A stretch of 64,000 nt of DNA from a virus (IMGVR_UViG_3300027763_000047:6308-70307); one strand, 5' to 3'; shown: positions 1-17,854, numbered from the stretch's first letter. Numbers and translations: made by a program. Notes: generated by a model from the letters alone, not told the origin.

Positions 1-111
1 AACTGGGCGTTGATATTACCCCTTGGATAATTGACCAGCATGAAGTTTCAGATATCCCATTACAGGATATTATTACGGCCCGCCATACCATGGCCATGTT
101 AAAGCGTTAAT

Positions 112-978: not shown

Positions 979-979
979 T

Positions 980-1183: not shown

Positions 1184-1184
1184 T

Positions 1185-1421
1185 ATGAATTATCGAGAAA
1201 AAATGCATTATTTAATGACCCAGCATCTATTTGAACCCTGGGACGAAACGACACGAAATGATATTGAAGAGAAATTTCGAGAGCATGTTCCGGGTAATTA
1301 CCGTCTATGTTGGGACAAGAATGCTGAATCAGTATATCTCACAGACGTGCAAAGAGATTATTTCCATTTGACATTTGATGATCCCGAGGAAGAAATCATC
1401 TGGAGATTACGCAATGAGTAA
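1185..1421 (+). CDS. small paralog-array protein, member 6 (divergent C-terminus)
   Basis: C-term EEEIIWRLRNE; ATGA overlap with next gene. Confidence 0.5.
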   Translation: MNYREKMHYLMTQHLFEPWDETTRNDIEEKFREHVPGNYRLCWDKNAESVYLTDVQRDYFHLTFDDPEEEIIWRLRNE

Positions 1422-1647
1422 GATAACATTTACCGATGCAAATCGTGCTACAGATTGCATATTATGGACAATAGCTAATATAGGACCAAAGATAAGTGTT
1501 CCTGGATCTAGTATTCGCGGAGAAGGCTGGCATTTTTGGACTAATATTCCGCATGATATTTCTGAAAAATCAATAACTTTTTCTATCGAATTGAACGAGC
1601 ATGTTGATGTAGACACAAAATTACTTTTTATGTTAAAATGGTCATGA
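1414..1647 (+). CDS. small paralog-array protein, member 7
   Basis: Internal ATG at 1414 overlaps previous stop (track ORF 1375-1647); C-term KLLFMLKWS. Confidence 0.55.
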   Translation: MSKITFTDANRATDCILWTIANIGPKISVPGSSIRGEGWHFWTNIPHDISEKSITFSIELNEHVDVDTKLLFMLKWS

Positions 1648-1886
1648 TAGCAGCAGAAGTTAAGACCTCACAGTTTTTTAAATTACCCAATGGCAAATGG
1701 CCAGAACCGGATTATGAACAAATGATGGATTGGTGCCGACAAATGATTGGACCCAAAGCTGAGTTCCGTGATCAAGTGTCAGAAGAATATCCCTGGACTT
1801 ACAGTCGTAGTAACGGTAATAGCTGGAGTACATGGCATTTCGCACGAGAAGAATATGCCACAATGTTTAGATTGAAATGGTTATGA
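1638..1886 (+). CDS. small paralog-array protein, member 8
   Basis: W-C-R-Q-M-I-G-P core, C-term EEYATMFRLKWL; true start may be ATG 1644 (ATGA overlap). Confidence 0.6.
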   Translation: MVMIAAEVKTSQFFKLPNGKWPEPDYEQMMDWCRQMIGPKAEFRDQVSEEYPWTYSRSNGNSWSTWHFAREEYATMFRLKWL

Positions 1887-2158
1887 TAATTGACATAACG
1901 AAACGATTGTGGCTCCCATTACGTCATAAAGACAAACAAAGTATTAAAAGCCAAATGATATCTTGGTTTGAACAAAATGTGGGCCCTGTAGTCAACTGTG
2001 ATCTAGATAACAGCATATACACCGGAGATGAGTGGAAATGGTTTAAGCATGTGATATATGATACAGGATCACAGGGACAACAAGTAACTTATACGTCATA
2101 CTTTGTTGATATCGCAGATGAAAGAGTAGCTACTATGTTTAGGTTAAAATTTTTATGA
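1877..2158 (+). CDS. small paralog-array protein, member 9
   Basis: C-term DERVATMFRLKFL. Confidence 0.6.
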   Translation: MVMIIDITKRLWLPLRHKDKQSIKSQMISWFEQNVGPVVNCDLDNSIYTGDEWKWFKHVIYDTGSQGQQVTYTSYFVDIADERVATMFRLKFL

Positions 2159-2385
2159 GAATGTCAATTTATAATGAACGTAATGAATGTCAAGTATGGT
2201 GGAGAAACTTCCGTAAAGTGGTACTACCAGGATCTCCTAACGGCCTAGGCTATCACGAATATATGGATCTTTATGCAAAAGCTCGCGCAGCTAAGTTAGC
2301 GGAATATGGGGCTACGTATCATTCACAGCATATTACCTTTATGAATCCTGCTATGGGTACTGTATTTTTATTGAGGTGGGCATAA
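2155..2385 (+). CDS. small paralog-array protein, member 10
   Basis: C-term AMGTVFLLRWA. Confidence 0.55.
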   Translation: MRMSIYNERNECQVWWRNFRKVVLPGSPNGLGYHEYMDLYAKARAAKLAEYGATYHSQHITFMNPAMGTVFLLRWA

Positions 2386-2564
2386 TGCTAAAATTCAATG
2401 ATTATCAATATAAGATAATGTGGCATGTGTTTACCCAAAAAGGTACATGTAACATACAAGGAGTTGATGCTTGCATTCGCTCGTATGGCGGAACTGTTGA
2501 AAATGGAAATATTTCATTCCGTATTCCTGAACAAGAAACATTATTTGTATTGAGGTGGTCATGA
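2376..2564 (+). CDS. small paralog-array protein, member 11
   Basis: C-term EQETLFVLRWS; gaggtggtcATGA junction. Confidence 0.6.
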   Translation: MGIMLKFNDYQYKIMWHVFTQKGTCNIQGVDACIRSYGGTVENGNISFRIPEQETLFVLRWS

Positions 2565-2761
2565 GTATTTTGAGAGATATGCCAAAAGATGTTATCATAA
2601 TTAAAATGAATGGATTTAGAGACGCTGATAAAGCCTGCGATTGGTGTCGTAAACAATTTGGTATACGTTCAGTACCAGAAGGTATGTGGGATTATTCGGG
2701 TAGAGAATTTCTGTTTAAACGAGAAGAAGATGCGGTGTTATTCGTATTGAGGTGGTCATGA
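2555..2761 (+). CDS. small paralog-array protein, member 12
   Basis: D-W-C-R-K-Q-F-G core; C-term EEDAVLFVLRWS; likely ATG 2561. Confidence 0.65.
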   Translation: MVMSILRDMPKDVIIIKMNGFRDADKACDWCRKQFGIRSVPEGMWDYSGREFLFKREEDAVLFVLRWS

Positions 2762-3006
2762 TTGGGGTAAACCAACTAAAGGCGATGATTCGTAAGCAAT
2801 GGATGGCTGAATTCCGTGGTAAACCTGTTGTGCTGCCGGGCGAGGCAAAGTTTATTACTGGAATACCGATGAAAGATGCGCACCTACATTATTTGGCGAC
2901 AGAGGCGGGAATAGAAGTAAGACTGTCAGACGATTACAAATCCATGGAAGGATTTTATATTCTTGATGAAGCGAAACTCATGTGGTTTGCCATGAGGTGG
3001 TCATGA
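2752..3006 (+). CDS. small paralog-array protein, member 13
   Basis: C-term EAKLMWFAMRWS; likely ATG 2758. Confidence 0.6.
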   Translation: MVMIGVNQLKAMIRKQWMAEFRGKPVVLPGEAKFITGIPMKDAHLHYLATEAGIEVRLSDDYKSMEGFYILDEAKLMWFAMRWS

Positions 3007-3197
3007 AAAAATACCCCTATTCCCTGGTAATAAGATATCGTGAAGCTGCTGAAAGACTTAAATGGATGGAGAAGTTACTTCCAGGTGAGGGGATAGATCG
3101 TTGGTGTTGGGCGGATAGTGCCGAGTTTGGCGAAGGATATGAAATTTTTTTTAGAGAAGAAGCTGATTATGTGTTATACTGTCTGAGGTGGACATGA
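3003..3197 (+). CDS. small paralog-array protein, member 14
   Basis: Start at ATGA overlap 3003 (track ORF from 2982); C-term EEADYVLYCLRWT. Confidence 0.6.
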   Translation: MKKYPYSLVIRYREAAERLKWMEKLLPGEGIDRWCWADSAEFGEGYEIFFREEADYVLYCLRWT

Positions 3198-3415
3198 TTT
3201 TTCCAGCAAGAATACCCAAGATGATTGCACAAGGTGAGATAGTGGCAATGGAACATGACTGGATTAAGACATTTATTCTATTGCCACATCGTACTATTGG
3301 GCATCGCTGGGTATGGTTAAAACGCATATATGTACGCAAAGTATGGATCTGCACAGGTTTTCATATCGAGCCAGAGACGCAGTATGGTGAATTATTTGAT
3401 ATCTTAAAAACATAA
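3194..3415 (+). CDS. hypothetical small protein embedded in the array (lacks the family C-terminus)
   Basis: ATGA overlap start 3194; ends ...LFDILKT. Confidence 0.5.
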   Translation: MIFPARIPKMIAQGEIVAMEHDWIKTFILLPHRTIGHRWVWLKRIYVRKVWICTGFHIEPETQYGELFDILKT

Positions 3416-3687
3416 TGATTACCGTTGATAAACAACCCAGATTAACACATGAAGTTAGGATAGGTGACAGATCTAACCTTGAGGTTGAACGGTTATGTAC
3501 ATGGTGCCACGAACAATTTGGAATAAGATTCAGTATTGTTGATCGTCCTGATAAGCAACCAACGTTTGGCCGCGATGGAGTATGGCAATGTATATACGAT
3601 GGATTTCAAAGGGATAGAGTTCCTGCGTATAAATTCTCATTTGATCATGAACAAGATGCTATACTTTTTGCCCTGAGGTGGTCATGA
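3415..3687 (+). CDS. small paralog-array protein, member 15
   Basis: W-C-H-E-Q-F-G-I-R core; C-term EQDAILFALRWS. Confidence 0.65.
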   Translation: MITVDKQPRLTHEVRIGDRSNLEVERLCTWCHEQFGIRFSIVDRPDKQPTFGRDGVWQCIYDGFQRDRVPAYKFSFDHEQDAILFALRWS

Positions 3688-3890
3688 TAATTATCAATGG
3701 AATCTCTCCGTGTATTTATAAAGCGGCAGGATGGTTAAGAAAACGGGCGTCGACACCGCCTGGCGAGCGATTGGATGATGAGTTTGCACAATATTTTAAT
3801 TGCCGTGTGGTCAGGAACGATGTTCTTAGTTTCCATATTGAATTCGATGATGACGCAGCCGCAACAATGTTTAAGTTGAGGTGGTCATGA
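3678..3890 (+). CDS. small paralog-array protein, member 16
   Basis: C-term DDAAATMFKLRWS. Confidence 0.6.
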   Translation: MVMIIINGISPCIYKAAGWLRKRASTPPGERLDDEFAQYFNCRVVRNDVLSFHIEFDDDAAATMFKLRWS

Positions 3891-4141
3891 CTGAAATTGT
3901 GCTGGAAGATTTGCTGGATTTTAATTTTACACAATTGGTTGAAATGCAGGATTGGTTAATTGAACACTTTGGAGAAAGCCGAATAGACGATATTGGAAGA
4001 TGGACTGGCGGTAGCTGGTTTTTACATCGAGTCTGGCGACCAGTTGACGGTTATCAGCGAGTACCCAGACACTACGGGCGTTGGATAGTGCAATTTGCAA
4101 ACGAACAAGATGCTACATTATTTAGATTGAGGTGGGCATGA
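3881..4141 (+). CDS. small paralog-array protein, member 17
   Basis: D-W-L-I-E-H-F-G core; C-term EQDATLFRLRWA. Confidence 0.6.
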   Translation: MVMTEIVLEDLLDFNFTQLVEMQDWLIEHFGESRIDDIGRWTGGSWFLHRVWRPVDGYQRVPRHYGRWIVQFANEQDATLFRLRWA

Positions 4142-4383
4142 TAATGATGGGGCGAGTAGTAGAAATAAGAAATAAGAGTCCAGACGAATGGTCTGAGATT
4201 ATGGCATGGTGTACAGAACAATTCGGGCTGCGAGCACTACACATAAATGAAGTTGCTGAATTTTCTCCACGAGGGGTGCTGGGTGGAAAATGGCTGGGAT
4301 CTTACTATGCATTTATTGGATGGGGTGATGTATATTTTCGACATGAGGAAGATGCTACACTTTTTATGTTAAGGTGGCTATAA
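4132..4383 (+). CDS. small paralog-array protein, member 18
   Basis: A-W-C-T-E-Q-F-G-L core; C-term EEDATLFMLRWL. Confidence 0.65.
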   Translation: MGMIMMGRVVEIRNKSPDEWSEIMAWCTEQFGLRALHINEVAEFSPRGVLGGKWLGSYYAFIGWGDVYFRHEEDATLFMLRWL

Positions 4384-4655
4384 TGACGGAATACGAATCA
4401 CAACATGCTTACTGGCAGAAAGACCATGATGCGGTTATGAAAGAAATGCAAGCGGAAAAAGCACAGATGGAAAAATACCCTCATCAAATTAAGGTGCAGA
4501 GTGTTGTAATTGATACTGGAAATAAAGAATGGTTTGTACGATGGCACTGGTGCGGTGAGAATTTTACCAAGGAAACTTATCGGTATAGCGGTGGATATTT
4601 TCAATTCCAGCATGAACAAGATGCAATATTTTTTGCGTTAAGGTGGAGCTCATGA
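4374..4655 (+). CDS. small paralog-array protein, member 19
   Basis: C-term EQDAIFFALRWSS; probable ATG 4383. Confidence 0.6.
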   Translation: MAIMTEYESQHAYWQKDHDAVMKEMQAEKAQMEKYPHQIKVQSVVIDTGNKEWFVRWHWCGENFTKETYRYSGGYFQFQHEQDAIFFALRWSS

Positions 4656-4834
4656 AAGTTACTTTACCCTATGATCCGTTATGGAAACCTTTGGAATGGG
4701 CCATGAAATATTGCCCAAGCTATATTACCAATGATGTGCATTGTGACGGATACAACACTTATGATAATACTAAGATTGATTATTTTTTTGGAAAAGAAAA
4801 AGATGCGACATTTTTTGCGTTAAGGTGGGCATAA
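4643..4834 (+). CDS. small paralog-array protein, member 20
   Basis: C-term EKDATFFALRWA; probable ATG 4652. Confidence 0.6.
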   Translation: MELMKVTLPYDPLWKPLEWAMKYCPSYITNDVHCDGYNTYDNTKIDYFFGKEKDATFFALRWA

Positions 4835-5037
4835 TGGACAATACAGAAAAACATTACATAAAAGTTTATTTGGTTAATGATGCACCCGGGTATAATTTAA
4901 AAAGAAAACAAATGGTCAATTGGATTAAGACATGCTGTAATGATTATAAATTGATAGATTCAGCTATTGATGGATTAGCGTATTCTGTATTTTTAACGGA
5001 GCAGGATTATATTATGTTTACACTGAAATGGGAATGA
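4825..5037 (+). CDS. small paralog-array protein, member 21
   Basis: C-term EQDYIMFTLKWE. Confidence 0.6.
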   Translation: MGIMDNTEKHYIKVYLVNDAPGYNLKRKQMVNWIKTCCNDYKLIDSAIDGLAYSVFLTEQDYIMFTLKWE

Positions 5038-5213
5038 CTGAAAGGGGAATGAGCCAAGAACCATGGACTTTTGTGTCTGTATCTAACATTGATGAGCCGG
5101 CCTGGATATGGTTACGCGAACAGCTAGACTTACGAACCTGGGATCATACGTATGACGGATTTTGGTTTATGCACGAACAGGATGCCATAATGTTTACATT
5201 AAAGTGGATATAA
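5028..5213 (+). CDS. small paralog-array protein, member 22
   Basis: C-term EQDAIMFTLKWI. Confidence 0.6.
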   Translation: MGMTERGMSQEPWTFVSVSNIDEPAWIWLREQLDLRTWDHTYDGFWFMHEQDAIMFTLKWI

Positions 5214-5464
5214 TGTATAATAACACTAAACCTAAGTATCAGTTTCATCGTGCTAAATGGTTCGAGTACGAAATGTGGGAGCCGTTTCCTGCAGGAAGGC
5301 CCGTCAATCAAGATAGAGTAAAGGCAATGCTTGAATGGTGTAAGGAACAATTTGGACCTGCACCCCCCATTACTGATGCATGGACACGATGGAGTGTATC
5401 CTACAGTATCATACGATTTAGGGACGAGAAGGATTATATATTTTTTATGTTGAAATGGGCATGA
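5213..5464 (+). CDS. small paralog-array protein, member 23
   Basis: TAATG overlap start 5213 (track ORF 5162); E-W-C-K-E-Q-F-G core; C-term EKDYIFFMLKWA. Confidence 0.65.
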   Translation: MYNNTKPKYQFHRAKWFEYEMWEPFPAGRPVNQDRVKAMLEWCKEQFGPAPPITDAWTRWSVSYSIIRFRDEKDYIFFMLKWA

Positions 5465-5652
5465 TTAAACACAAATATTCTGAACTAATACACGCATGGG
5501 CAGACGGTGCGACCATACAAGTGTATTGGACTGGAAGTGGCAAAACACAGTTTGAGTGGATGGATGTAGAATTTCCAGACTGGAATATAGATAACTGTAC
5601 AACCATGGATGGTCAAGTGATTACATGGCGTCTTAGAATTAAACCAAAATAA
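5461..5652 (+). CDS. small array protein (divergent; ends WRLRIKPK)
   Basis: ATGA overlap start; weak similarity to member 6 tail. Confidence 0.45.
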   Translation: MIKHKYSELIHAWADGATIQVYWTGSGKTQFEWMDVEFPDWNIDNCTTMDGQVITWRLRIKPK

Positions 5653-5662
5653 GAGAGAAGAA

Positions 5663-5893
5663 ATGTATAAAGTATATTGGTCTTCAGAAGATGGAGCCGC
5701 CCGTAGTAAAGATTATTTAGAAATGACTGATGCCCTAACCGAGGCTAACCGTATGCGTACCATTGGTATGTCATATGTTGCCATGGTAGGTGAGAACCCT
5801 AACCAAGTGGGCAAGATGGGATGTGATAGTGTGGAAGATGGTAAACTACCAAACGGTGAAGAGTATACTTGGAAAATGCGCGGGAATCTATAA
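5663..5893 (+). CDS. hypothetical small protein
   Basis: 76-aa ORF after a short gap with GAGAAG RBS. Confidence 0.5.
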   Translation: MYKVYWSSEDGAARSKDYLEMTDALTEANRMRTIGMSYVAMVGENPNQVGKMGCDSVEDGKLPNGEEYTWKMRGNL

Positions 5894-5894
5894 C

Positions 5895-6161
5895 ATGACA
5901 ACAATGTGGATTGGTGATTTAAATCAGTATCGTGCGATACGTGAAATGTTTGACATTTATTGTACCGATATTAATAGCGAAGATTGTGCCAGCCCATTCG
6001 AAGACTATTGGAATCGCAGAATTAATTCCCCTACCATGTGTTACGTTATTGGGGTTACTAAAATAAAGGTAATGTCAGATGACGGGTCATATTATATACC
6101 ACTGCAATTATCATTTAATAGCGAAGAAGAACGAACATTTTGGTTGTTACAGAACTCATGA
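5895..6161 (+). CDS. small paralog-array protein, terminal divergent member
   Basis: ATG 5895 just after previous stop; C-term EEERTFWLLQNS. Confidence 0.5.
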   Translation: MTTMWIGDLNQYRAIREMFDIYCTDINSEDCASPFEDYWNRRINSPTMCYVIGVTKIKVMSDDGSYYIPLQLSFNSEEERTFWLLQNS

Positions 6162-7222
6162 AGATTAGATTACTGGGGCAGGCGAACGACAGCGGGATCG
6201 GTACACATTACGATAGATACACCCGAGCTTTACAATCGGTCAATGGATTGAACTCCATACTGGAGTTGTTGGATTTTACCGACGCCGATGCTGTAACGCA
6301 ATCCGCAAAATTAAGCACCGCAGGTGATATTAATATATCATTTGTCTGTGCCAATCTCAACGGATATTTTCGTGGACACAATATTAACTGGGCAGTATTT
6401 GAATCCACCCGCATACCCGATACTTTATATCAGGTAATGAATCAGCATATGCTTTGGTTACCGACAGAATGGGCACGCAAGATAGCCATAGCCCAGGGAA
6501 TTAAACCGGAACAGATAGCTGTGGTACCCGAGGGTGTGGACACTGACCTGTTCCATCCTTACGGCATACCGCAACACGAAGTCTTTAGGTTCCTAACCAT
6601 AGGCAAATACGAACAGCGTAAATCAATTGATGAAACGATTGATGCCTTTGCCCAGGTATATGGCGACAACCCTGAGGTGGAACTGGTGATTAAGTCAGAC
6701 TTTTTTCGTGAGCCCGAAGTTAAATATTACCAGTTGCTGGATAAGATTGCCAGTACCGGGGTCGACAACATACACTTGGTCTGGGGTTATCAGACACACG
6801 ACCAATTGGCCAACCTATATAGATCTGCTGATGTATTCCTAATGCCCACCAAGGCCGAGGGTTGGGGCTTGCCTTTAATTGAAGCTGCTGCCATTGGCTT
6901 ACCCATAGTGACAACGTTCCATGCGGGGCAGACAGAGTTCCTACAGCATATAAGATCCAGTTGTGTGTTTGTTGACTATCAACTGACACCCATAGCCTGT
7001 CCCGAGTACCAGGGATTTTACCCTGCTGCTGACGGTGACTACGGCAAGTGGGCAGTTTCTACTGTGCCGGCTATTGCTAAAGCTATTGAACAAGCGTATA
7101 ATAACTATGCAGCATTAAAGTCACAAGCAGTCAAGAACAGTGATGTTATCCGCACTAAATTCTCCTGGGCCAACAGCGTGACTGCATCATTGAGTACGCT
7201 CAAGCAGTGGGGTATGTTGTAA
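6158..7222 (+). CDS. glycosyltransferase, GT4 / Glycos_transf_1-like
   Basis: PTKAEGWGLPLIEAAAIGLPIVTT (E-x7-E motif); ATGA-coupled start at 6158. Confidence 0.8.
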   Translation: MKIRLLGQANDSGIGTHYDRYTRALQSVNGLNSILELLDFTDADAVTQSAKLSTAGDINISFVCANLNGYFRGHNINWAVFESTRIPDTLYQVMNQHMLWLPTEWARKIAIAQGIKPEQIAVVPEGVDTDLFHPYGIPQHEVFRFLTIGKYEQRKSIDETIDAFAQVYGDNPEVELVIKSDFFREPEVKYYQLLDKIASTGVDNIHLVWGYQTHDQLANLYRSADVFLMPTKAEGWGLPLIEAAAIGLPIVTTFHAGQTEFLQHIRSSCVFVDYQLTPIACPEYQGFYPAADGDYGKWAVSTVPAIAKAIEQAYNNYAALKSQAVKNSDVIRTKFSWANSVTASLSTLKQWGML

Positions 7223-7713: not shown

Positions 7714-8715
7714 ATGTCAAATGTGCTGATTAAGAACGGTGTTTATCGCAATACCCCGGTAGTTAACGTTTCTTTCACGCTTGTAAAAGATTTGCAAACA
7801 GGTGCCAACGGCAATTATGTGACTGTAAAGTCCAATGGTTACTTTGGCCCCGACCACGACACAGTTCGTATTCGAGTAAACGGCATGGAGGATATTGAGT
7901 TTGAAGGTAACCCAGATCCTGTTGTACCAGCTGTTGCCGAAACGGACGAAGAAGTCATGGAGCGTATTGCTGAACGTTTCGAAATCCTACATCAAATGAC
8001 TCGTGCTACCATTGCTGGTGATGTACGTGCCATGATTGTTGTTGGCCCTCCTGGTGTGGGTAAGAGCTATGGTGTTGAGTATGAGCTGGAGAAATCTGGT
8101 TTGTTTGACAAGATCAGCAGCCGCAAGATCAAGTATGAAATTATCAAGGGTGCTATCAGCCCTATTGGTCTGTACTGCACATTATACAAACACTCAGATG
8201 CTAACAACGTTCTGGTGTTTGATGACTGTGACTCTGTATTCCAAGATGAGCTGGCGCTAAACATTCTTAAGGCGGCCCTGGATTCAGGCAAGAAGCGCAG
8301 GATCCACTGGAACTCGGACTCAAGTATGTTACGTCGTGAAGGTGTGCCAGACTGTTTTGATTTTAAGGGTGGTGCTATTTTTATCACTAACCTTAAGTTT
8401 GACAACTTAAAGTCCAAGCGTATGCAGGATCACCTGGAAGCATTGCAATCACGCTGTCACTTCCTGGACTTAACTCTGGATACAATGCGTGATAAGTTTT
8501 TGCGTATCAAACAGATTTTCCGTCAGGGTCAGCTGTTTAATGACTATGATCTTAGCCCCGAAGTTGGGGAAGAGATTTTAGCATTTATGGATGCTAACAA
8601 GAATCGCCTGCGGGAAATGAGCCTGCGTATGGCGTTGAAGTTAGCTGATCTTACCAAGGTAAGTGAGACTAATTGGAAGGCGTTAGCAGTATCGACTTGT
8701 ATGAAGGGTGCCTAA
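7714..8715 (+). CDS. AAA-type P-loop ATPase
   Basis: Walker A VVGPPGVGKSYG, Walker B VLVFDDCD, sensor FITN. Confidence 0.65.
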   Translation: MSNVLIKNGVYRNTPVVNVSFTLVKDLQTGANGNYVTVKSNGYFGPDHDTVRIRVNGMEDIEFEGNPDPVVPAVAETDEEVMERIAERFEILHQMTRATIAGDVRAMIVVGPPGVGKSYGVEYELEKSGLFDKISSRKIKYEIIKGAISPIGLYCTLYKHSDANNVLVFDDCDSVFQDELALNILKAALDSGKKRRIHWNSDSSMLRREGVPDCFDFKGGAIFITNLKFDNLKSKRMQDHLEALQSRCHFLDLTLDTMRDKFLRIKQIFRQGQLFNDYDLSPEVGEEILAFMDANKNRLREMSLRMALKLADLTKVSETNWKALAVSTCMKGA

Positions 8716-8856: not shown

Positions 8857-8917
8857 GTATCGTTTTAACAGCGATACATTTTATCAGGTGTCCCTAAAAA
8901 GACACCTGCTTTTTTTT
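8857..8917. terminator. tandem hairpins plus T-run (likely bidirectional terminator between convergent operons)
   Basis: gtatcg...cgatac and caggtgtc-cctaaaaa-gacacctg followed by ctttttttttgg. Confidence 0.6.
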
Positions 8918-9027: not shown

Positions 9028-9348
9028 TTATAGAAAATACCAGTTTCCGGGTGCATTGGCCAGGTCTCCAGGTAAGCCATAAGGAACGGTTCTACCGGCG
9101 TCAGTAAAAAACTCTACATCAATTGCTGTATACTGATGAGTGTATAAACGAACATTATCTGCGGCGGTGCCAGTGTTGCGCCACTCCCCATAACTGTCGC
9201 CAATTCCTGGGTTAGCATGCCATTCGGCTTGACTACCGGCAACAAAAAACGGTGTCCCGGGTCCAATAGTCCCTGGTAGTTCGCCTATATTAATGCCACC
9301 ACCTATTTCAATACCGTTGCCTACTTTAATTCCTAATGGGGGTGCCAT
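9028..9348 (-). CDS. putative tail-fiber tip/adhesin paralog C
   Basis: N-term MAPPLGIKVGNGIEIGGGINIG shared with two upstream genes. Confidence 0.55.
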   Translation of the reverse strand: MAPPLGIKVGNGIEIGGGINIGELPGTIGPGTPFFVAGSQAEWHANPGIGDSYGEWRNTGTAADNVRLYTHQYTAIDVEFFTDAGRTVPYGLPGDLANAPGNWYFL

Positions 9349-9357
9349 AATAATTCC

Positions 9358-10107
9358 TTAATATCCAAATCTTGTTTTGTAAGTGTTGTATTGTGCCTGT
9401 ATTGCGCTCAAACTTAACACACCGTCCCATACCTTTACCAAGCCCACATCAGCAGTGGGAACCTCTGAACTGGTGGTGGAATTAACATATCTACCAAACA
9501 ATCTTAGGCCGTTGAATCCACCGTTGGATGTGTTGGTATCATAAGTTGTTGTTGGCACAGTTGAGTTAGCAACATAGCTTTGTGAAAATGGAGATCCGGC
9601 GTCACCGTTATATGTTGCCCATATAAATTGCCAATTGCTGTCTGCAGGAATAGAATTACCTACAAAGGCATTGTTATAAAAAACATTTTGTACGTAACTA
9701 CTACCGTTAAACCATAAGCCCGCTAGCCAGTCTGGACTGGCGCTGTTGGCGTTTAACAATCTACCTGCCGCAATTGGTTGCGATCTGTACACCATCATCA
9801 CTGTGTAAGGTTGTGATGTTACGGAGTAATCTGGTCCAAATACCAAAAAGTCTGTGTCGGCGGCTGTAGTTTTGCGGAATATTCCGCCATCAGCAGGATC
9901 CCAAGACATACTGCCACTAGGATTAAGTGTTGTTATAGTGTAAGCGCCTGATCCCGCTATAGTTGTTCCATCCGCAGGCATGGTACTATAATTGGCCGCG
10001 TCAAGATCAAGAACTAAAACAGGTGGTATAGGTATTCGAACATCTGGACCAGCATTAATGCCGCCACCAAATGTAATGCCACCGCCAATTTGTAATGGTG
10101 CTACCAT
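9358..10107 (-). CDS. putative tail-fiber tip protein with concanavalin/LamG-like lectin fold
   Basis: N-term MVAPLQIGGGITFGGGINAG; W-x-F-I-W-A-T-Y-N-G ... V-K-V-W-D-G-V-L-S pattern. Confidence 0.5.
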   Translation of the reverse strand: MVAPLQIGGGITFGGGINAGPDVRIPIPPVLVLDLDAANYSTMPADGTTIAGSGAYTITTLNPSGSMSWDPADGGIFRKTTAADTDFLVFGPDYSVTSQPYTVMMVYRSQPIAAGRLLNANSASPDWLAGLWFNGSSYVQNVFYNNAFVGNSIPADSNWQFIWATYNGDAGSPFSQSYVANSTVPTTTYDTNTSNGGFNGLRLFGRYVNSTTSSEVPTADVGLVKVWDGVLSLSAIQAQYNTYKTRFGY

Positions 10108-10110
10108 AAT

Positions 10111-10434
10111 TTAATTTCCAGTAAATGTATAAAATAACCCACTGGTAAAGATTCCCCCAGTGATAGTAATTGTTTGTGCTCCTGGATCGGTACTGACCAC
10201 AGTTGCTCCTGGAATTTGATCCACTAACCAACCTGGCCCAACATTGTTTAAATTTGGTACACCAGTTAAAGAGTTCCAATTGCCAACAAAAAAGAATCCA
10301 ACGGCATCATTGCTGCCGGCTACATTTTGTACGCTGGGCGTTGTAGTCATTCCTTGGTAAATTTCGTGATTGCCAAGTTTAATACCACCGCCTATTTCAA
10401 TACCGTTGCCTATTTTAATTCCTGGAGCTACCAT
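10111..10434 (-). CDS. putative tail-fiber tip/adhesin paralog A
   Basis: N-term MVAPGIKIGNGIEIGGGIKLG. Confidence 0.55.
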   Translation of the reverse strand: MVAPGIKIGNGIEIGGGIKLGNHEIYQGMTTTPSVQNVAGSNDAVGFFFVGNWNSLTGVPNLNNVGPGWLVDQIPGATVVSTDPGAQTITITGGIFTSGLFYTFTGN

Positions 10435-10462: not shown

Positions 10463-13400
10463 TTAATAAAGTTTTGTATAACCATAATTAACTACCACAG
10501 AGTTGCCGCTGGTGTTGTTAATGCTAAAGTCAAATCTATTAGTAGTACTACTTGGAGCAACATTGCTTCTAACTATGGCGTTGGCTGTGCCTATAAATTG
10601 ATTGGGTATGCTGACAAAATCCAACGGTGTACCGCCACCGTTGTAAACCCAAGCATATTGTGTACCCACCACTGGAACATTGGTATTAGTAATGGTAGCT
10701 AGGGCATTCCACGCAATGATGCCGTTGGGTATATTGCCAGTGACCCACATATTATATGTGCCGCTACTTACAGTAAAGCTGTAAGTGTTGGTGCCAGCGG
10801 TTACTGACCAAGAGCCGGTTGTTTGTTGGGCCACATTGGTCAAGCCTGATCCATTACCAACAAAGGTATTAGCAGTAACATTGCCGGCAGCACTGATATT
10901 TGCACCAGAGATGTTGCCAGAAGAGGGTTCAACGGTAGCATAGTTATTATACTTTATATTACCATCATAGAGCATTATACTCATATAACCATTGGAGGTA
11001 ATATCTTGTGTGACTGCTGGAGCTGGTAAACTAGTTAATTGACTACCATTACCTAAAATATAATTGCCAGTAATATTACCGTAGGCACTTAGTGATCCGC
11101 CTGACATACTTGATGGTATCGTAATATCGCCACCACTTACTGTTAATCCTTGTACTCCGGTAATGTTGGCACTGACAACTGTTAGTTCTGACCCAGATGT
11201 TATGTTGCCCGAAACGCTAATATTGCCTTGTTGTATATTAAGATTACTTAGTACATTGCCACTTAAACTTAAATTACCACCATTGATATTTTGTCCATTT
11301 ACATTGGCACCTATTATATTGCCTTCCGCGCTAATGCTACCACCCATGCCGGTATTGGAAGACATTGTAAGATTTCCACCTTCCATTGTAAGGCCATTAA
11401 CACTATAAATGTTAGCGCCATATGCAAAGATGTTGCCACTCAAACTAATATTGCCTGCGGATATATTAGCAGCATTTACATTGCCGCTTATGTTGGCATT
11501 ACTAATAATATTACCTGATAAACTTAGGTTAGCGGCATTAATATCGCCTGAGAAGTTAGCACCAAAAGCATTAAGATATCCGCCGAGGCCAGTAATTTGA
11601 TTAATATTAATATTACCAGCATTGGAAGTAATGCCTGTTACTGTGTCAATTAATAATCCAGAGGCTGTAATGTTACCTGAAGTTGATATTACGTTACTAC
11701 CAAAGTCGCCTAAGAAGTTAGCCACGTTAGCGTTGCCATAATCGCTACCACCAATTGATACCGGGGTACCATTAGCGTAGTTAACTGCAAAAGTATTAGC
11801 TGGTAGAGTCAAGTTGCCTGTGTTACCAAATAACCATTGGTTAATGTTTGGGCCAGCGTTAGTAAAAATACCAACAGAGAAGTCGCTAGTAATACCAAAG
11901 ACGCCTTCGCCTCCGCTTATTGAAGAGTTGTCAGGAAACCTTAAACCACCATTTACACCAAATGTCCATTGTGCTGAGTTACCTACATTGTCATTAGTAT
12001 TAATAACAACGTTACCTGTGTTGGCTAGCTTGACGTACAAGTCATCACTGCCGAAGAACAATTCTGTAGAGTAAAGATTACCCGAAGTCAAGTGCAGATG
12101 ATTGGCATCATTAGTGGTTGGATAAATTAATAACTGTTGATCAGCATTTGTTCCACCTGTTGGCTTTAAAGCAATGGCACTGCCGCTAAGTCCGCCGTCC
12201 GGAATGTTGGTTTCATAGACAACACTATTCAATGGCAAGGTCAAGTTACCAGTAGTGTCAAAGTTCCAAGTCTTTGTGCCACTGACATTACCAGCCTGTA
12301 TGGCCACATTGCCATCCTGTAAAACAGCAACATTGGCTTGTTCATCTGTGCCCAAAATCACATTACCAACGCCACCACCAGCTGCTACATGTATATCCGC
12401 GTTCCCAGTCAAGTAAATATTTAAATACTCATTGCTGGCACCGTTTGGTTGTAGGTTTAAGTTTCCTGTGCCAATGATGTTGACATCATCAAATGTAACA
12501 TTACCTGTATTACCACCTCCGCCACTGAATGTAACAGGATCACCATTGGCATAGTTTACAGCGAATGTATTGGCTGGTAATGTTAAGTTACCAAGGCTAT
12601 CAAATATCCAAGTATTACCAGTTGAAGTGTACCCGTTCCAAGACTGTATGGAAACATTGCCGATTGGAGAAACTCCAACCATCACATTGGCACCAGCATC
12701 TTCACCTAATATAAGACTTCCATCATTGTTGGTAACATGAAGGTCTGGTCCAGAGGTTAGGAAGATGTCCAAATATGAAGCAGCATTGGTAGGATCTGGT
12801 TGTAAGTGTAAGTTACCTGTACCAATGACATTAATATCATTGAATGTTACATTGCCTGTGTTACCACCGCCACCGCCGTATGGACTACCGTTAGCATAGT
12901 TAATACTTGAGTAATTATTTGGTAATGTTATGTTACCGTCAACGCCGAATGTCCAATCAGTCGGAGCAGTATTATTATTACCGGCATTGGCAGCAGTATT
13001 ATATTTGGTTATTACAAATGTTGCCCCACCATTACCAGCAGTCATAGTCAATACATCACCTTCGGAATAACCTGTGCCCGGATCAGTTACACCAACGTTA
13101 ACAACCTGACCACTTAAACCATAACCGTAACCTACTATCATACCTGTACCTGTGCCTCCGGAAATAGCAGAAGAACTTCCGCCACCACCGTAACCACTGC
13201 CACCAGTTAGTAATGTACAGATATTATATTGACCTGTTACTCGTAGTGTCAAGTCGTTTACATTCGGTGCAATGATAGTAGCACTGTTGGGTAGTGTTAA
13301 GTTACCATTTACACCAAAGGCCCATGTATTGGCATTGGCTGTGATATTAACGCTAGTATTACTAGTTTCACTTATTTGGCTACCTTGAGGCAATGTCAAT

Positions 13401-16400
13401 GCACCACTAGCATTAAAATCCCATAGATTAGGACCAGGGCTACCATTTTGTCCTACTGCTATTCTAACAATACCTGATCCTGGAGTAGGGTTAGCATATA
13501 CTGCCGCTATGTTGCTGATGCCAACGTTCGCATAATCTTCTATCCATATGGATACTGCCGCACCATTGGCTCCAGTTGACAATATGGACAGTGGATGATC
13601 CGTAGATGCAATAGAAGCAATATTACCAGCAGGGTCATCAGGTGTGATAACTAAATTACCTGTTGGGAATGTTAAGTTACCAGTAGTGTCAAAGTTCCAC
13701 TGTGCTGAGTTTCCGGTGGCATCATCACTGCCGATCACAACATTGCCGGCGGCTTCTAATTTTACATACTTGATATCGGAGCCAAAGTATTGATCAAAAT
13801 AAGCATTGTTGCCTGTGTCAAGGTGTATGTGTGTGGCAACATCGCCACCACGCACTCGAATATATTGTAAATTGCCCACGCTTTCGGTGCCTGGAGCCAG
13901 GTACAGGCCACTGCTGCCAACTTGATCTCCAGTGCCCACAACAGCTTGATCGTCGAATGTAACGTTGCCTGTGTTGCCGCCGCCACCAGCCGTGTCATAT
14001 GTGATCTCACCAGTAGATGCATCATAATACATGGCATTTGCTGTGTTGGCTTGTCGCACTGGTTTCACTGTGAATGTGTTGACAGTGGTTTGCTCCAGGA
14101 CTGATCCTGTGGCGTTCAATATGATTGAGTTGTTGGCTTGATTGGAGTTGCCGGCTCCGTAGCCAATGGCCACTGCGTATTGGCCCTGTGTGTCTCGCCC
14201 GGCTCCATCACCAACGGCCACGGCCGAGATGCCTTGTGTGTTGTAACCAGCATTTTCGCCAATGGCCACTGCTGAGTTGCCTTGTGTGGTTTGACCAGCT
14301 TCAAAACCAATAGCCACGCCATAGATGCCTTGTGTGGTTTGACCAGCAAGTCTTCCAAATGCTATTGCCGAGGTTCCTTGTGTGGTTGCGCCAGCCCCAA
14401 AACCAATTGCTATTGCCGAGCCACCTTGTGTGGTTTGTCCAGCTCCTTGGCCCACAGCCACCGACGATTCACCTTGTGTGGTTTTACCAGCACTATCACC
14501 GATTGCTACTGATTGGTCACCTTGACTGGTATTACCAGCTTGATAACCAATGGCCACTGATATATTACCTTGATTGACATTACCAGCCGAGTTGCCAATG
14601 GCTACTGCAACCAGGCCTTGATTGGTTAGTCCAGCACCCGAACCAAATGCCACTGCGTCACCCACAGTGTCTTGAATTGTTGCACCGTTTGTGAGTGTGA
14701 TCACGCCTGTGCTGATATTGCCTGCTGTGATATTGCCCGTGGTGCTGATTGGGTTTGATCCTAATGCAGCCAAGTTAGCAACAACATTGGCGTTGCCATA
14801 ACTTGCGGAAATACCAGTCAGTTGACTACCGTTGCCCAGAATATAACTACCAGTGATGTTGCCAACAGCACTGATGTTGCCAGGCACAGTCAAGTTACCA
14901 TCTGTGCCAAAGGTCCATGCATTACCGGCAGTTCTATCCGTGATACTATAATTGTTGCTACCATTGCCAAGAATACCAAAGTCCCATTGCTGAGTTGCGG
15001 TGGCCTGATCCTGCACTGACATATAAGCACTACGCGGAGTATTGTAGTTGTCATCGTAGCCAACCACAGTAATGCCAGGGCCAGCCACAATGCCAAAGTC
15101 TGTGCTTTCTACTCTTGGAGTATTGACCGTTATGTATGGAGTATAATCAACTCGGGGCTGGTAAGCCGTGTTACCGTTAATATCCAATAGACCATCGCCA
15201 TCGAACTGCATGGTGGTGTAGGTATCACCAGGCGTACCGCCTTGATTGGAAAAATCTCCCAACCAATTTATCTGCACCGCTCCAGAGTTGCCGCTAGGAT
15301 AACCACCGTAAGGATCGCCATTGGCATAGTTGATTGATATTTCGCTGTTACCTGGCAGTGTTAAGTTACCATCAGTGTCAAAAGCCCAGTTATAGGTGTT
15401 TGTTCCAATTGATATGTTACCACCGGATTCTAACTTGACATATTTGCTATCATCACCAAAGTATTGATCAAAATAACCATTATCGCCAGTGTCAAGATGT
15501 ATGTGTGTGGCAACATCACCACCACGCACTCTCAAGTATTGTAAATTGCCCGAGCTGTTAGCGCCAGGAGCCAAATACAAGCCACTGCCGCCGATTTCAT
15601 CGCCTGTGCCTACTACAATGTTATTATCAAATGTAACATTACCCGTATTACCGCTACCAGATGGCAGACCAGTTAATTGACTTCCATTGCCTAGGATGTA
15701 ACTTCCGGTAATATTACCAGTTGTTGAAATTACTACGTTACTGTTTGCCAAATATGTAGAAACATCAGCATTTGAGTAACTGGCTGGAAGATTAGTTAAT
15801 TGACTTCCATTACCAACGAAATAATTAGCAGTAATATTGCCGGTAGCAGATACCGTACCTACTGTAAGAACTTCTGTTCCGGAATTATACTTGAATAAAT
15901 TAGAAGTAGTAATATAACCGGTAGAATTAGCAAACGCTACAGCATTAGCATAATAATTAGGAGAGTACAGATTATTTAAAGTAACATCGCCGGCGTTGAT
16001 TGATCCTGTCGTACTAATTGTGTTGGAACCAAAGTTTGCTAAGAAACCAGCAGTATTTGCATTTCCATAATTAGAAGCAATACCAGTTAGCTGACTGCCA
16101 TTGCCAAAGAAATAACTAGCGGTGATATTGCCAGTAGTTGATATATTTGATGTTAATGCTTGTAAGTAAGATGAAACATTGCCATTAGCATATACTTGGC
16201 CTTGTAATGTAGTTATATTACTTGAATTGTTTGAAACATTAGATTGAATACTAATTATAGTATTGTCAGTTGGCAAGTATACGGCTACATTACTGTTACC
16301 ATAACTAGTAGTAACTACAATATTTGATATCAGACCGCCATCACCAATAAAATAGCCACTTGTTGTAATATTACCTACAATAGATAAATTGGCGGTTGAT

Positions 16401-17437
16401 GCTAATTGATATGCCATTCCGGCTACAACAGCTGAGTTGGCATTGTCCGCTTGAACAGCATAAGTTGCTGCGTTAGCTGTTTGTGCTATAGTGGCTGTGT
16501 TAGCAAATGATGCTAAGTTGGCATTGATTGCGAATAAAGCAGTATCAGCATTGATCGCCTGAGTAGCCAATGCTGCTAGATTAGCTACATATGCTGTGTT
16601 AGCAACAAGAGCAAACGGCACATTACCTACAATAGCATTGGCTGTAATGTTAGTGATATTGCTGCCATTGCCATACAGATAATTAGCAGTAACTCTATTA
16701 CCAACAATAGCATTGGCATATACATTCCCGGTTGTTGATACATTACCAGTGATAGATAAGGCAGATATTTGTCCAAAACTAGTTAAGTTTGAATAATTTA
16801 TGCTATTGCTGAATGTATTTCCAAGTAAAGCATTGGCCTGTACATTGGCAATAACATTGGTTAAATTGGCACCATCACCGATGAAAGTAGGTGCTGTAAT
16901 AGCAATTGTGCTATTCCAGCTGTTAGCTGAGTAATTATATGTAAAGTTAGCTCCTGCTATAGGAATTAACAGTCCGCCGCCATTAGCCTGTGCTGCATTG
17001 GCAGCACCGGTTGCTAGTGTAACATTTGAATTAGCAACAGATAAATTAGAATAGTTAACAGTAATAACATTGCCTGTTACCTGCAGGTTACCAGCTACAT
17101 AGACATTACCGGAGAACGTACCGGTGGCAGCGTTTATATATTGAGCGTAAACTGTACTGAAACGATTGGTACCCAACCCAATTGACCGGACATTGGGCAC
17201 ATCTGGTACAAAGTTGGCTGCTGGCACAACAACACCAATGCCATTTGTGGCTAATTGTAAATTGCCATTGTTATTGGTAACCTGTATGGTATTGTTGGCA
17301 ATTGTGATATTGCTGCCCACCGGGCCCGCTGCAAAAAGCTGTGTAAAATTGTAATTGGTGTCGGTAAAAGCTGTACGAAGTGGCGCACCTGTGCCATCGT
17401 TAGCGATATTGCCGGTATTGATAATTATTTGTCCCAT
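10463..17437 (-). CDS. giant tail fiber protein (2324 aa)
   Basis: N-term MGQIIINTGNIANDGTGAPLRTAFTDTNYNFTQLF fiber motif; about 13 S-A-V-A-I-G-x-x-A-G-x-T-T-Q-G repeats; multiple W-x-F-x-x-x-G-N-L-T-L-P and GNGSQLTG modules. Confidence 0.85.
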   Translation of the reverse strand: MGQIIINTGNIANDGTGAPLRTAFTDTNYNFTQLFAAGPVGSNITIANNTIQVTNNNGNLQLATNGIGVVVPAANFVPDVPNVRSIGLGTNRFSTVYAQYINAATGTFSGNVYVAGNLQVTGNVITVNYSNLSVANSNVTLATGAANAAQANGGGLLIPIAGANFTYNYSANSWNSTIAITAPTFIGDGANLTNVIANVQANALLGNTFSNSINYSNLTSFGQISALSITGNVSTTGNVYANAIVGNRVTANYLYGNGSNITNITANAIVGNVPFALVANTAYVANLAALATQAINADTALFAINANLASFANTATIAQTANAATYAVQADNANSAVVAGMAYQLASTANLSIVGNITTSGYFIGDGGLISNIVVTTSYGNSNVAVYLPTDNTIISIQSNVSNNSSNITTLQGQVYANGNVSSYLQALTSNISTTGNITASYFFGNGSQLTGIASNYGNANTAGFLANFGSNTISTTGSINAGDVTLNNLYSPNYYANAVAFANSTGYITTSNLFKYNSGTEVLTVGTVSATGNITANYFVGNGSQLTNLPASYSNADVSTYLANSNVVISTTGNITGSYILGNGSQLTGLPSGSGNTGNVTFDNNIVVGTGDEIGGSGLYLAPGANSSGNLQYLRVRGGDVATHIHLDTGDNGYFDQYFGDDSKYVKLESGGNISIGTNTYNWAFDTDGNLTLPGNSEISINYANGDPYGGYPSGNSGAVQINWLGDFSNQGGTPGDTYTTMQFDGDGLLDINGNTAYQPRVDYTPYITVNTPRVESTDFGIVAGPGITVVGYDDNYNTPRSAYMSVQDQATATQQWDFGILGNGSNNYSITDRTAGNAWTFGTDGNLTVPGNISAVGNITGSYILGNGSQLTGISASYGNANVVANLAALGSNPISTTGNITAGNISTGVITLTNGATIQDTVGDAVAFGSGAGLTNQGLVAVAIGNSAGNVNQGNISVAIGYQAGNTSQGDQSVAIGDSAGKTTQGESSVAVGQGAGQTTQGGSAIAIGFGAGATTQGTSAIAFGRLAGQTTQGIYGVAIGFEAGQTTQGNSAVAIGENAGYNTQGISAVAVGDGAGRDTQGQYAVAIGYGAGNSNQANNSIILNATGSVLEQTTVNTFTVKPVRQANTANAMYYDASTGEITYDTAGGGGNTGNVTFDDQAVVGTGDQVGSSGLYLAPGTESVGNLQYIRVRGGDVATHIHLDTGNNAYFDQYFGSDIKYVKLEAAGNVVIGSDDATGNSAQWNFDTTGNLTFPTGNLVITPDDPAGNIASIASTDHPLSILSTGANGAAVSIWIEDYANVGISNIAAVYANPTPGSGIVRIAVGQNGSPGPNLWDFNASGALTLPQGSQISETSNTSVNITANANTWAFGVNGNLTLPNSATIIAPNVNDLTLRVTGQYNICTLLTGGSGYGGGGSSSAISGGTGTGMIVGYGYGLSGQVVNVGVTDPGTGYSEGDVLTMTAGNGGATFVITKYNTAANAGNNNTAPTDWTFGVDGNITLPNNYSSINYANGSPYGGGGGNTGNVTFNDINVIGTGNLHLQPDPTNAASYLDIFLTSGPDLHVTNNDGSLILGEDAGANVMVGVSPIGNVSIQSWNGYTSTGNTWIFDSLGNLTLPANTFAVNYANGDPVTFSGGGGNTGNVTFDDVNIIGTGNLNLQPNGASNEYLNIYLTGNADIHVAAGGGVGNVILGTDEQANVAVLQDGNVAIQAGNVSGTKTWNFDTTGNLTLPLNSVVYETNIPDGGLSGSAIALKPTGGTNADQQLLIYPTTNDANHLHLTSGNLYSTELFFGSDDLYVKLANTGNVVINTNDNVGNSAQWTFGVNGGLRFPDNSSISGGEGVFGITSDFSVGIFTNAGPNINQWLFGNTGNLTLPANTFAVNYANGTPVSIGGSDYGNANVANFLGDFGSNVISTSGNITASGLLIDTVTGITSNAGNININQITGLGGYLNAFGANFSGDINAANLSLSGNIISNANISGNVNAANISAGNISLSGNIFAYGANIYSVNGLTMEGGNLTMSSNTGMGGSISAEGNIIGANVNGQNINGGNLSLSGNVLSNLNIQQGNISVSGNITSGSELTVVSANITGVQGLTVSGGDITIPSSMSGGSLSAYGNITGNYILGNGSQLTSLPAPAVTQDITSNGYMSIMLYDGNIKYNNYATVEPSSGNISGANISAAGNVTANTFVGNGSGLTNVAQQTTGSWSVTAGTNTYSFTVSSGTYNMWVTGNIPNGIIAWNALATITNTNVPVVGTQYAWVYNGGGTPLDFVSIPNQFIGTANAIVRSNVAPSSTTNRFDFSINNTSGNSVVVNYGYTKLY

Positions 17438-17584: not shown

Positions 17585-17854
17585 ATGATTAAGAAATTAA
17601 ACAAAGGTACCAAGTCGCACCAGTTGTTCAAGCACCTACAGACCGGCGCTCAGATTACTGCCGCAGAAGCAGCTCGTATGTTCGGTATCAAGAATATTCG
17701 TGCTGAGGTTTCACGTGTACGTCACGCAGGTTTCGCAGTATACAGTAAGTCATATACTGCTGGTAACCATGTTAAAGTTACATACTACGTTATGGGAACC
17801 CCAAGTCAAGAGATCGTAGCTGCTGGCTATCGTGCGCTCGCATTAGGTCTGTAA
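17585..17854 (+). CDS. small hypothetical protein, possible HTH DNA-binding
   Basis: 89 aa; ITAAEAARMFGIKNIRAEVSRVR helix-turn-helix-like segment. Confidence 0.45.
   Translation: MIKKLNKGTKSHQLFKHLQTGAQITAAEAARMFGIKNIRAEVSRVRHAGFAVYSKSYTAGNHVKVTYYVMGTPSQEIVAAGYRALALGL

Follow-up and report, generated by a model that had tools for sequence, protein, structure and literature searches.

Three small genes follow a giant tail-fibre gene

The window, which is the whole stretch of 64,000 nucleotides that was analysed, comes from an uncultivated freshwater jumbo phage in which three small genes, designated A, B and C, lie downstream of a giant tail-fibre gene. The features of the locus are as follows.

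10463-17437, minus strand: giant fibre gene, 2324 aa, the ORF directly upstream of the cassette.
10111-10434, minus strand: gene A, 107 aa, consisting of an N-terminal tag and a beta domain of ~85 aa.
10372-10419, minus strand: tag of A (residues 6-21), IKIGNG-IEIGGG-IKLG, three Phi-x-Phi-G-x-G hexapeptides.
9358-10107, minus strand: gene B, 249 aa, consisting of a tag, the Pro-rich linker PDVRIPIPP and a divergent LamG/concanavalin A-like lectin jelly roll (residues ~30-249).
10048-10095, minus strand: tag of B (residues 5-20), LQIGGG-ITFGGG-INAG.
9028-9348, minus strand: gene C, 106 aa, consisting of a tag and a domain of ~80 aa whose fold has no assignment.
9283-9330, minus strand: tag of C (residues 7-22), IKVGNG-IEIGGG-INIG.
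8885-8908, no strand assigned: G+C-rich hairpin in the convergent intergenic region, with a T-run on the plus strand.
17585-17854, plus strand: winged-helix HTH_39 gene (Pfam match 5.5e-8), divergent from the fibre gene.

The gaps, as read from the sequence, are 28 nt from the fibre stop codon to A, 3 nt from A to B and 9 nt from B to C, in agreement with a preliminary description that had placed three tightly packed minus-strand ORFs at these coordinates after the fibre gene. AAGGA-type ribosome-binding sites precede A and C. The hairpin probably marks the end of the fibre-A-B-C transcription unit; since its T-run sits on the plus strand, it would be bidirectional at best. The HTH_39 gene is a syntenic marker of the fibre locus, which has the same neighbour in the related contigs L008 and L014. 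The T4 late promoter sequence TATAAATA was not enriched and none was found near the cassette, and an Rfam search returned no family in the window. A readthrough signal, suggested by the single frame that A, B and C share, was rejected because the cassette of contig L010 spans more than one frame.

A, B and C share an N-terminal tag

The N-termini of the three proteins are MVAPGIKIGNGIEIGGGIKLG (A), MVAPLQIGGGITFGGGINAG (B) and MAPPLGIKVGNGIEIGGGINIG (C), in each of which three Phi-x-Phi-G-x-G hexapeptides begin 4-6 residues past the Met. When a six-frame translation of the 64-kb window was searched with the pattern G.G[ILV].[ILVF]GGG[ILV], exactly three matches were obtained, corresponding to the N-termini of A, B and C. 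Tandem Repeats Finder reported an 18-nt period at 10381-10419 in A and at 10056-10097 in B. Past residue ~22 the A/B/C protein alignment was essentially noise, so that the C-termini differ as had been described. A, B and C thus share a module and are not full-length paralogs: the earlier term "paralogous" applies to the first ~20 codons and the ribosome-binding site and fails beyond them. Similarly, the N-terminal string that had been given for all three proteins was only partly accurate, as GNGIEIGGGI is exact in A and C whereas B fits the hexapeptide pattern with other residues. The idea of one common N-terminal peptide fused to different globular domains was borne out, the tag being shared and the remainder unrelated.

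Of 213 full-length metagenomic homologs of A, B and C, 205 retain the tag, indicating that it is under selection rather than a product of chance. The consensus of these homologs is [ILV]-x-[IFV]-G-x-G-[IW]-x-[IV]-G-x-G-[IW]-x-Phi-G, with an onset 2-7 residues past the Met. The Gly positions are 82-96% conserved, the inward (flanking) positions are hydrophobic and the outward (middle) position is polar. All 158 distinct 12-mers of the tag fit one Phi/Gly pattern. Moreover, the Gly and Ile codons of the tag vary among genomes while the residues stay constant, which argues that the tag is selected at the protein level. In both AlphaFold (AF2) monomer models the tag had a pLDDT below 50 and no secondary structure, although the domains behind it were confidently modelled. 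Such disorder in a monomer is expected for a peptide that becomes ordered only on a partner.

A profile of 30 tag residues was also searched against 1.84 billion representative proteins. This query contains too little information, and the search returned three true fragments together with ORFs that run through CRISPR arrays and unrelated bacterial GxGIxA-repeat proteins. Some bacterial proteins carry ~17 tandem GxGIxA hexapeptides and have no Pfam match. The Pfam Hexapep model did not match the tag at E <= 1, three hexapeptides being one turn. An RHIM-like amyloid motif, (I/V)-Q-(I/V)-G, was considered on account of LQIG in B and was rejected because the Q position is free. We conclude that the tag module is real and widespread, yet without annotation in Pfam, PHROGs, NCBIfam or PADLOC.

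B is a divergent lectin, and A and C carry other small domains

Searches of Pfam, PHROGs, NCBIfam and PADLOC with A, B and C returned nothing. Homologs of A, B and C fell into 67, 583 and 7 clusters, respectively, all of them metagenomic hypothetical proteins without Pfam domains; all seven clusters of C carry the tag. A LamG/concanavalin-like pattern had been noted in B from its sequence, and this assignment held: a full-length homolog of B (L005:4731-5456; 29% identity, E = 2e-14) matches Pfam Laminin_G_3 at 1.1e-16, scoring 61.8 bits where the cutoff is 27.6. The sequence of B has diverged too far for the Laminin_G_3 model and gave no match, and 3 of 37 members of the B family gave matches below the threshold, the best at 2.8e-4. 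A concanavalin-type beta-sandwich jelly-roll fold was found in B. Taken together, B is a divergent LamG/concanavalin-type lectin. The matches of B to PDB profiles were designed "Bagel" propellers, which we dismissed as spurious and driven by repeats.

The domain of A was modelled with confidence as a small beta domain, for which no fold stood out as a match; against PDB sequence profiles it gave only a weak CBM-like match (E = 0.03), and C gave none.

The tag heads many unrelated domains in related jumbo phages

The lineage is made up of uncultivated jumbo phages of the T4 type, whose contigs reach 362 kb; those of L006, L008 and L013 span 278-362 kb. In the major capsid protein (MCP) they share ~65% identity with Vibrio phage 2.275.O, Sinorhizobium phage Phosso and PA5oct, and the nrdC.10-like gene of the window is ~40% identical to its PA5oct counterpart. 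Tagged cassettes contain one to five genes, and their content differs from contig to contig, as listed here by the order of the tagged genes.

Window: A-B-C.
L010: A-C-B-D-E.
L011: C-B-D-E'.
L003: D-B.
L004: B-D.
L005: D-B'-E.
L002: B-F-E-A'.
L008/L009: B-H.
L014/L015: B-I.
L019: D-K-(one untagged gene)-H-H'-(one more tagged gene, cut by the contig end).
L021: A-F-(one more tagged gene, 234 aa).
L025: A-LamG.
L006: A and G, with two untagged genes in between.
L013: J and A, several untagged genes apart.

This comparison of related contigs confirmed the suspicion that the genes form a cassette with rapid turnover. As in the window, two to five proteins per phage share the tag but not their C-termini in L002-L005, L010, L019, L021 and L025. 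Counted over the related jumbo phages from metagenomes, at least 11 C-terminal types with no relation to one another follow the tag. The recognisable ones are LamG, a He_PIG Ig domain with Kelch-like repeats (L006), Gly_rich_2 (L008) and, as a weak match, SPRY (L002). Every C-terminal domain that could be recognised is of a binding type, and none is a beta-helix depolymerase. The tagged cargo proteins are small, ranging from 49 to 600 aa.

The cassette lies directly behind a giant fibre gene in at least eight distinct contigs (the window, L003, L008/L009, L014/L015, L019, L021, L022 and L025). It follows the major capsid gene gp23 in L001 (B), L006 (A), L010-L012 (A-C-B-D-E in L010) and L013 (A), usually with a homing endonuclease separating gp23 from the cassette. 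In L004 and L026 it occupies neither position. The MCP-downstream region contains fibre-like and Pel9A-like beta-helix genes in L013 and L006, and tail-fibre and tail-collar genes in cultured relatives. Tagged genes were absent from the MCP-downstream regions of Vibrio phage 2.275.O and PA5oct. In INPHARED (50,697 phage records) the region had no blastn match, B had no tblastn match and A had none even at E <= 1. B also had no relatives in 185,579 GTDB genomes, which therefore provided no clue to the host.

Tags match within genomes and fall into I and W classes

Neighbouring unrelated genes have nearly the same tag, whereas orthologs in other genomes have a different one. In the window, ~44 nt of tag-coding DNA are ~93% identical between A and C, which also have an identical AGGAATTATT stretch, the ribosome-binding region, right before the ATG. 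In L010 the first 47 nt of A and C are identical. Tags also match between B and D of L004 and between B and E of both L005 and L002. The rare variant QAGWEVGPGW is common to B and a neighbour of 364 aa in L014/L015, and S[IV]GAGWSIGPGVALGG is common to A and the LamG_3 gene in L025. A permutation test of within-genome matching on hand-aligned tags gave p ~0.003. The effect is modest, mean tag identity being 0.60 within a genome, 0.55 between orthologs and 0.50 between unrelated pairs.

Tag positions 7 and 13 were strictly coupled: 141 homologs have I,I and 30 have W,W, with no I/W mixtures. Both I-type and W-type tags occur in each of families A, B and C. The matching and the coupling of positions 7 and 13 together point to gene conversion or recombination acting on the 5' module, along with a constraint that keeps the tags of any one phage to a single kind. 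The I and W classes form the pattern expected of compatibility classes that co-evolve with an acceptor. The within-genome matching could also be a neutral by-product of gene conversion.

The giant fibre is a candidate acceptor of the tag

The giant fibre has SVAIG repeats like those of YadA heads and, at its C-terminus, a globular region that is conserved; its gene carries 48/96-nt repeats. The last 200 aa of the protein are conserved among IMG/VR contigs, in which genes with the motif again come next downstream. Searches with the 2324-aa protein gave no Pfam, PHROG or NCBIfam match, and a T4gp10-like branching domain was not detectable by sequence. We consider the giant fibre a candidate acceptor of the tag, and the tagged proteins possibly cap the C-terminus of the fibre in the window. 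Adjacency to the fibre is not obligatory, since cassettes also occur after the capsid gene and elsewhere (L004 and L026).

A model for attachment of the tagged proteins

The reading that we tentatively prefer, at somewhat less than an even chance, is that A, B and C are plug-in adhesin modules docked on the particle via their common N-terminal peptide. The architecture of the genes, the conservation and the I and W classes of the tag, its matching within genomes, the nature of the domains and the turnover of cassettes are shown by the sequences; we infer attachment to the virion, a docking role for the tag and the choice of acceptor from fold assignment and comparative genomics. According to this model, A, B and C would be late-expressed accessory adhesins of the virion, each composed of a different small globular binding domain, a short linker and the same 16-18-residue tag. 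A and C would contribute small beta-type domains and B a LamG/ConA-type lectin. The tag, unstructured alone, would become ordered by adding short beta strands, with Gly turns between them, to an acceptor on the particle. Within a phage, all proteins with the tag would either vie for sites of one kind or occupy them side by side, such that different binding domains are displayed and the set is multi-specific. The acceptor would most likely reside in the fibre apparatus and may be the giant fibre encoded just upstream. Finally, the conserved 5' module, consisting of the ribosome-binding site and the tag codons, may double as a recombination handle through which cassettes are swapped, duplicated and homogenised, which would account for their rapid turnover. 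Several points count in favour of the model, among them the binding-type domains, the disorder of the tag, its selection at the protein level, the within-genome matching and the I and W classes described above. The genomic context is late and structural, with cassettes after giant fibres or in the MCP-downstream region that is the tail-fibre region of cultured relatives. The tag is the sole shared element and is strictly N-terminal. In addition, short N-terminal docking peptides are established for secondary receptor-binding proteins.

Where the tagged proteins would sit on the particle bears on a rather unlikely alternative, a Hoc-type decoration of the capsid in which the tag anchors lectin and Ig domains to the capsid lattice, so that the head adheres to glycans and tail-mediated host recognition is not involved. 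Exposed Ig-like or lectin domains are typical of head decoration proteins such as T4 Hoc and T5 pb10, and the He_PIG Ig-like and lectin domains of the tagged set are of this kind. The tag has a pseudo-threefold character (3 x 6 residues), and the tagged genes are directly downstream of a T4-type gp23 in L010-L012, L006, L013 and L001. However, cassettes adjacent to giant fibres were found in more contigs, and the MCP-downstream position is not specific to capsid genes, given the tail-fibre and tail-collar genes of cultured phages and the beta-helix genes of L013 and L006. The homing endonucleases between the MCP gene and the cassette further suggest that this junction is a recombination hot spot. 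We consider it quite unlikely that the tag is instead a self-assembly element whose copies stack into homo- or hetero-oligomeric mini-fibres or a bottle-brush attached by other means. Eighteen residues make up one turn of a left-handed beta-helix (LbH), and the hexapeptide period, the inward Phi-x-Phi and the Gly corners are compatible with the LbH consensus [LIV]-G-x-x-[STAV]-x. The strict I,I/W,W coupling in successive hexapeptides fits packing in one core, within-genome matching would be a requirement of co-assembling partners, and the bacterial proteins with long runs of GxGIxA hexapeptides also point in this direction. Against self-assembly, Pfam Hexapep failed to match even at the permissive threshold given above, cassette sizes of one to five genes follow no stoichiometric rule and a single beta-solenoid rung per chain is not known to be a stable unit outside amyloids. 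The AF2 monomers also leave the tag unstructured, although this would be expected under either hypothesis. A single-rung stacking tag, an 18-residue triangular beta-solenoid turn templated onto a beta-helical acceptor or onto other cassette tags, is decidedly unlikely. If it were true, any mix of small binding domains could form a hetero-polymeric bottle-brush adhesin, the I-type and W-type cores would be mutually incompatible specificity classes, and the tag would represent a new amyloid-like principle of modular virion assembly as well as a compact plug-and-play handle for phage engineering.

It is very unlikely that the 5' segment is mainly a nucleic-acid element, either a translation-initiation or regulatory site or, in the manner of the PeSL cassettes of T4-type phages, a linker for recombination, with a peptide that is functionless or acts as a head-targeting signal resembling the T4 CTS. 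The ribosome-binding site does lie within the DNA shared by A and C, and the identical 5' ends of A and C in L010 show that recombination or gene conversion takes place there. Nonetheless, the amino-acid pattern is constant across genomes while codons vary, with 158 distinct 12-mers obeying it, and no Rfam family matched. T4 internal proteins, which are unrelated proteins with a shared N-terminal targeting peptide encoded at hyperplastic loci, provide a precedent for the targeting variant. The T4 CTS is an N-terminal amphipathic peptide of ~10 residues that ends in an L/I-x-E prohead-protease site, whereas the tag consensus has neither a conserved Glu nor such a site, and lectin and Kelch domains would be implausible in injected internal proteins. 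Highly improbable, in our judgement, is a role as fibre assembly chaperones or maturation factors that bind the nascent fibre via the tag and are absent from the mature virion. The site immediately downstream of a fibre gene is the classical position of tail-fibre assembly genes (T4 gp38/gp57A, lambda Tfa and Mu U), and the A, B and C proteins are small. The preliminary description had offered chaperones as one possibility. That proposal found no support: the recognisable C-terminal domains (LamG, Ig, Kelch-like and SPRY-like) are binding folds rather than chaperone folds, and Pfam, PHROG and NCBIfam gave no Caudo_TAP, gp38/gp57A-like or other chaperone-family match. Furthermore, up to five different genes per locus turn over quickly next to a conserved fibre C-terminus, and the same genes are also found far from any fibre gene.

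Should the tag serve in docking, as the preferred model proposes, it would be among the shortest and most promiscuous virion-attachment handles described, with ~18 residues carrying at least 11 kinds of binding domain in a widespread lineage of uncultivated freshwater jumbo phages. Host or particle adhesion would then diversify through swaps of small cassettes rather than by rebuilding fibres of 2000 residues. Docking would also make the tag a sequence signature for adhesins in metagenomic phage genomes without annotation, and a minimal handle by which foreign domains could be displayed on phage particles. The I and W classes, together with matching within genomes, lead to a concrete and testable prediction of co-evolution between tag and acceptor.

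Comparison with known systems

The hexapeptide repeats of LbH proteins (Hexapep, PF00132) resemble the tag in their 6-residue period, in the order of an aliphatic residue followed by Gly and in that three repeats make one turn. Unlike Hexapep proteins, the tag has one turn only and two Gly per repeat (Phi-x-Phi-G-x-G). B differs from members of the Laminin_G_3/ConA-like lectin-glucanase superfamily in having the N-terminal tag and in not matching the family model. T4 Hoc and T5 pb10 share with the tagged set adhesion-type domains, non-essential surface display and, in some of the relatives examined here, genes near the capsid gene. However, Hoc and pb10 bind the capsid by a folded domain rather than by an 18-residue Gly-rich tag, and the tagged set has no match to these families and mostly follows fibres.

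T-even gp38 binds the tip of the long tail fibre, gp37, via an N-terminal attachment domain. Like A-C, gp38 of T2, T6 and S16 is encoded by a small adhesin gene directly after the fibre gene and has Gly-rich motifs and hypervariable specificity. In gp38, the Gly-rich motifs belong to the C-terminal receptor-binding domain, where they form a polyglycine-II sandwich; the attachment domain spans at least ~60 aa. Each T-even phage has one gp38 as opposed to the multi-gene tagged set, and A, B and C gave no sequence or family match to gp38 in Pfam or PHROG.

In branched (anchor-branch) receptor-binding protein systems, short conserved N-terminal peptides dock secondary receptor-binding proteins on a T4gp10-like branching domain of the primary one (PMC6872550). 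Such peptides occur in K1-5/K1E/SP6 (7 and 11 residues), in Klebsiella phages KP32, KP34 and Menlow, in PhiK64-1/RaK2 and in the G7C gp63.1-gp66 pair (PMC6872550), and docking by a conserved peptide has been validated experimentally (PMC13352976). The tag described here is a glycine-rich triple hexapeptide without sequence similarity to these peptides. Its cargo is small and mostly non-enzymatic (lectin, Ig, Kelch or beta domains), in contrast to the trimeric beta-helix depolymerases of ~600-1200 aa that make up branched receptor-binding proteins. The branching domain on which those systems rely was not detected by sequence in the neighbouring fibre, and, unlike theirs, the tagged cassette is also found after the capsid gene. 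In both cases one phage has several unrelated C-terminal specificity domains headed by one short N-terminal peptide, the peptide differs among phage groups, and the genes cluster by a large primary fibre or spike gene and are horizontally exchanged. PhiK64-1 and RaK2, both myoviruses with many receptor-binding proteins, are jumbo phages like those of the present lineage. The branched receptor-binding protein systems are the closest known counterpart of the tagged set.

Tag classes and reading frame

A, B and C, the three genes behind the giant fibre gene, encode proteins with a common N-terminal tag of three hexapeptides. Among their homologs (P0001-P0216), tag positions 7 and 13 were both isoleucine in 141 cases and both tryptophan in 30, and no mixture of the two residues was found in this set. 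Each class was represented in families A, B and C, and adjoining genes carried tags of the same class (L014/L015; L025:6001-7048; contigs of related phages).

A, B and C share a single reading frame (window 9028-10434), their separators each consisting of one stop codon and 1-3 codons. Because the genes of the L010 cassette are not all in one frame, readthrough across A, B and C is disfavoured and their common frame is probably a coincidence.

Proteins of relatives and matches to the tag profile

The following proteins of relatives were noted:

L002:2161-2469, A-type protein lacking the N-terminal tag, with the tag-like C-terminal extension GKGGVTFGQGVSITAT
L015:3091-4185, also L014 from ~8752, 364-aa tagged protein with the Hint-like motif 'CLAQGTLITMADG'
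L013:3314-3463 and L022:8721-8870, 49-aa tagged proteins in which the tag is followed only by a short 'LVTLxGDxLVTL' or 'FIITENGADRLITEN' tail

Since the L002 protein ends in its tag-like element, the hexapeptide element may also function C-terminally. The Hint-like motif could represent an autoprocessing or intein-like element within an adhesin-type gene; the match of the 364-aa protein to Pfam Hom_end_hint was weak (E = 0.0056). The 49-aa proteins, the smallest of the tagged family, could serve as caps or as competitors for the putative acceptor site.

Outside the window, the tag profile matched two groups of library entries, P0217-P0222 with P0227, and P0224 with P0226 and P0229. Matches to the profile included ORFs that run across the 'VAPGLRVGRGLE' repeats of CRISPR arrays, as well as ~200-aa proteins containing ~17 tandem GxGIxA hexapeptides. 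The latter matched no Pfam family and may constitute an undescribed beta-helix repeat family.

Genomic neighbourhood

In several relatives, SegE-type GIY-YIG or HNH homing endonuclease genes separate the cassette of tagged genes from the major capsid gene:

L001:3497-4357
L010:8663-9454
L011:9101-9841
L013:2495-3268

Their presence suggests a hot spot for mobile DNA at this junction. Within the window, the cassette is flanked by the first two of these features:

7714-8715, nrdC.10-like gene (phrog_1250), ~40% identical to PA5oct
6140-7222, GT4 glycosyltransferase gene
1-5900, plus strand, ~25 mostly overlapping ORFs of 60-95 aa

Counterparts of the nrdC.10-like gene in T4-type phage records are labelled nrdC.10, thioredoxin or hypothetical protein, and in L003, L008, L009 and L014 the glycosyltransferase gene and the fibre locus are syntenic. 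Positions 1-5900 contained no ORF of at least 120 aa and showed a strong GC skew (~0.25); this stretch resembles a region of early genes in a T4-type jumbo phage.

Apparent modular structure of the giant fibre

Repeats were found in the fibre gene (10463-17437):

14162-14607, minus strand, tandem array of ~16-residue 'SVAIGxxAGxxTQG' units
11900-15700, long repeats within the gene, with the pattern 'GNTGNVTFD...LYLAPG...LQYLRVRGGDVATHIHLDTG'

The long repeat occurs as two full-length copies and two shorter variants without the HIHLDTG end, and 'GNITGSYILGNGSQLTG' units are numerous in the same region. Duplicated modules appear to be the building blocks of the fibre, whose homologs range from ~730 to >2700 aa. 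The window fibre matched no family, unlike a related 345-aa fibre-like protein of L013, which matched Pfam YadA_head (1.3e-7). The ~16-residue units of the window fibre, with a DNA period of 48/96 nt, are similar to the repeats of the YadA head in trimeric autotransporter adhesins.
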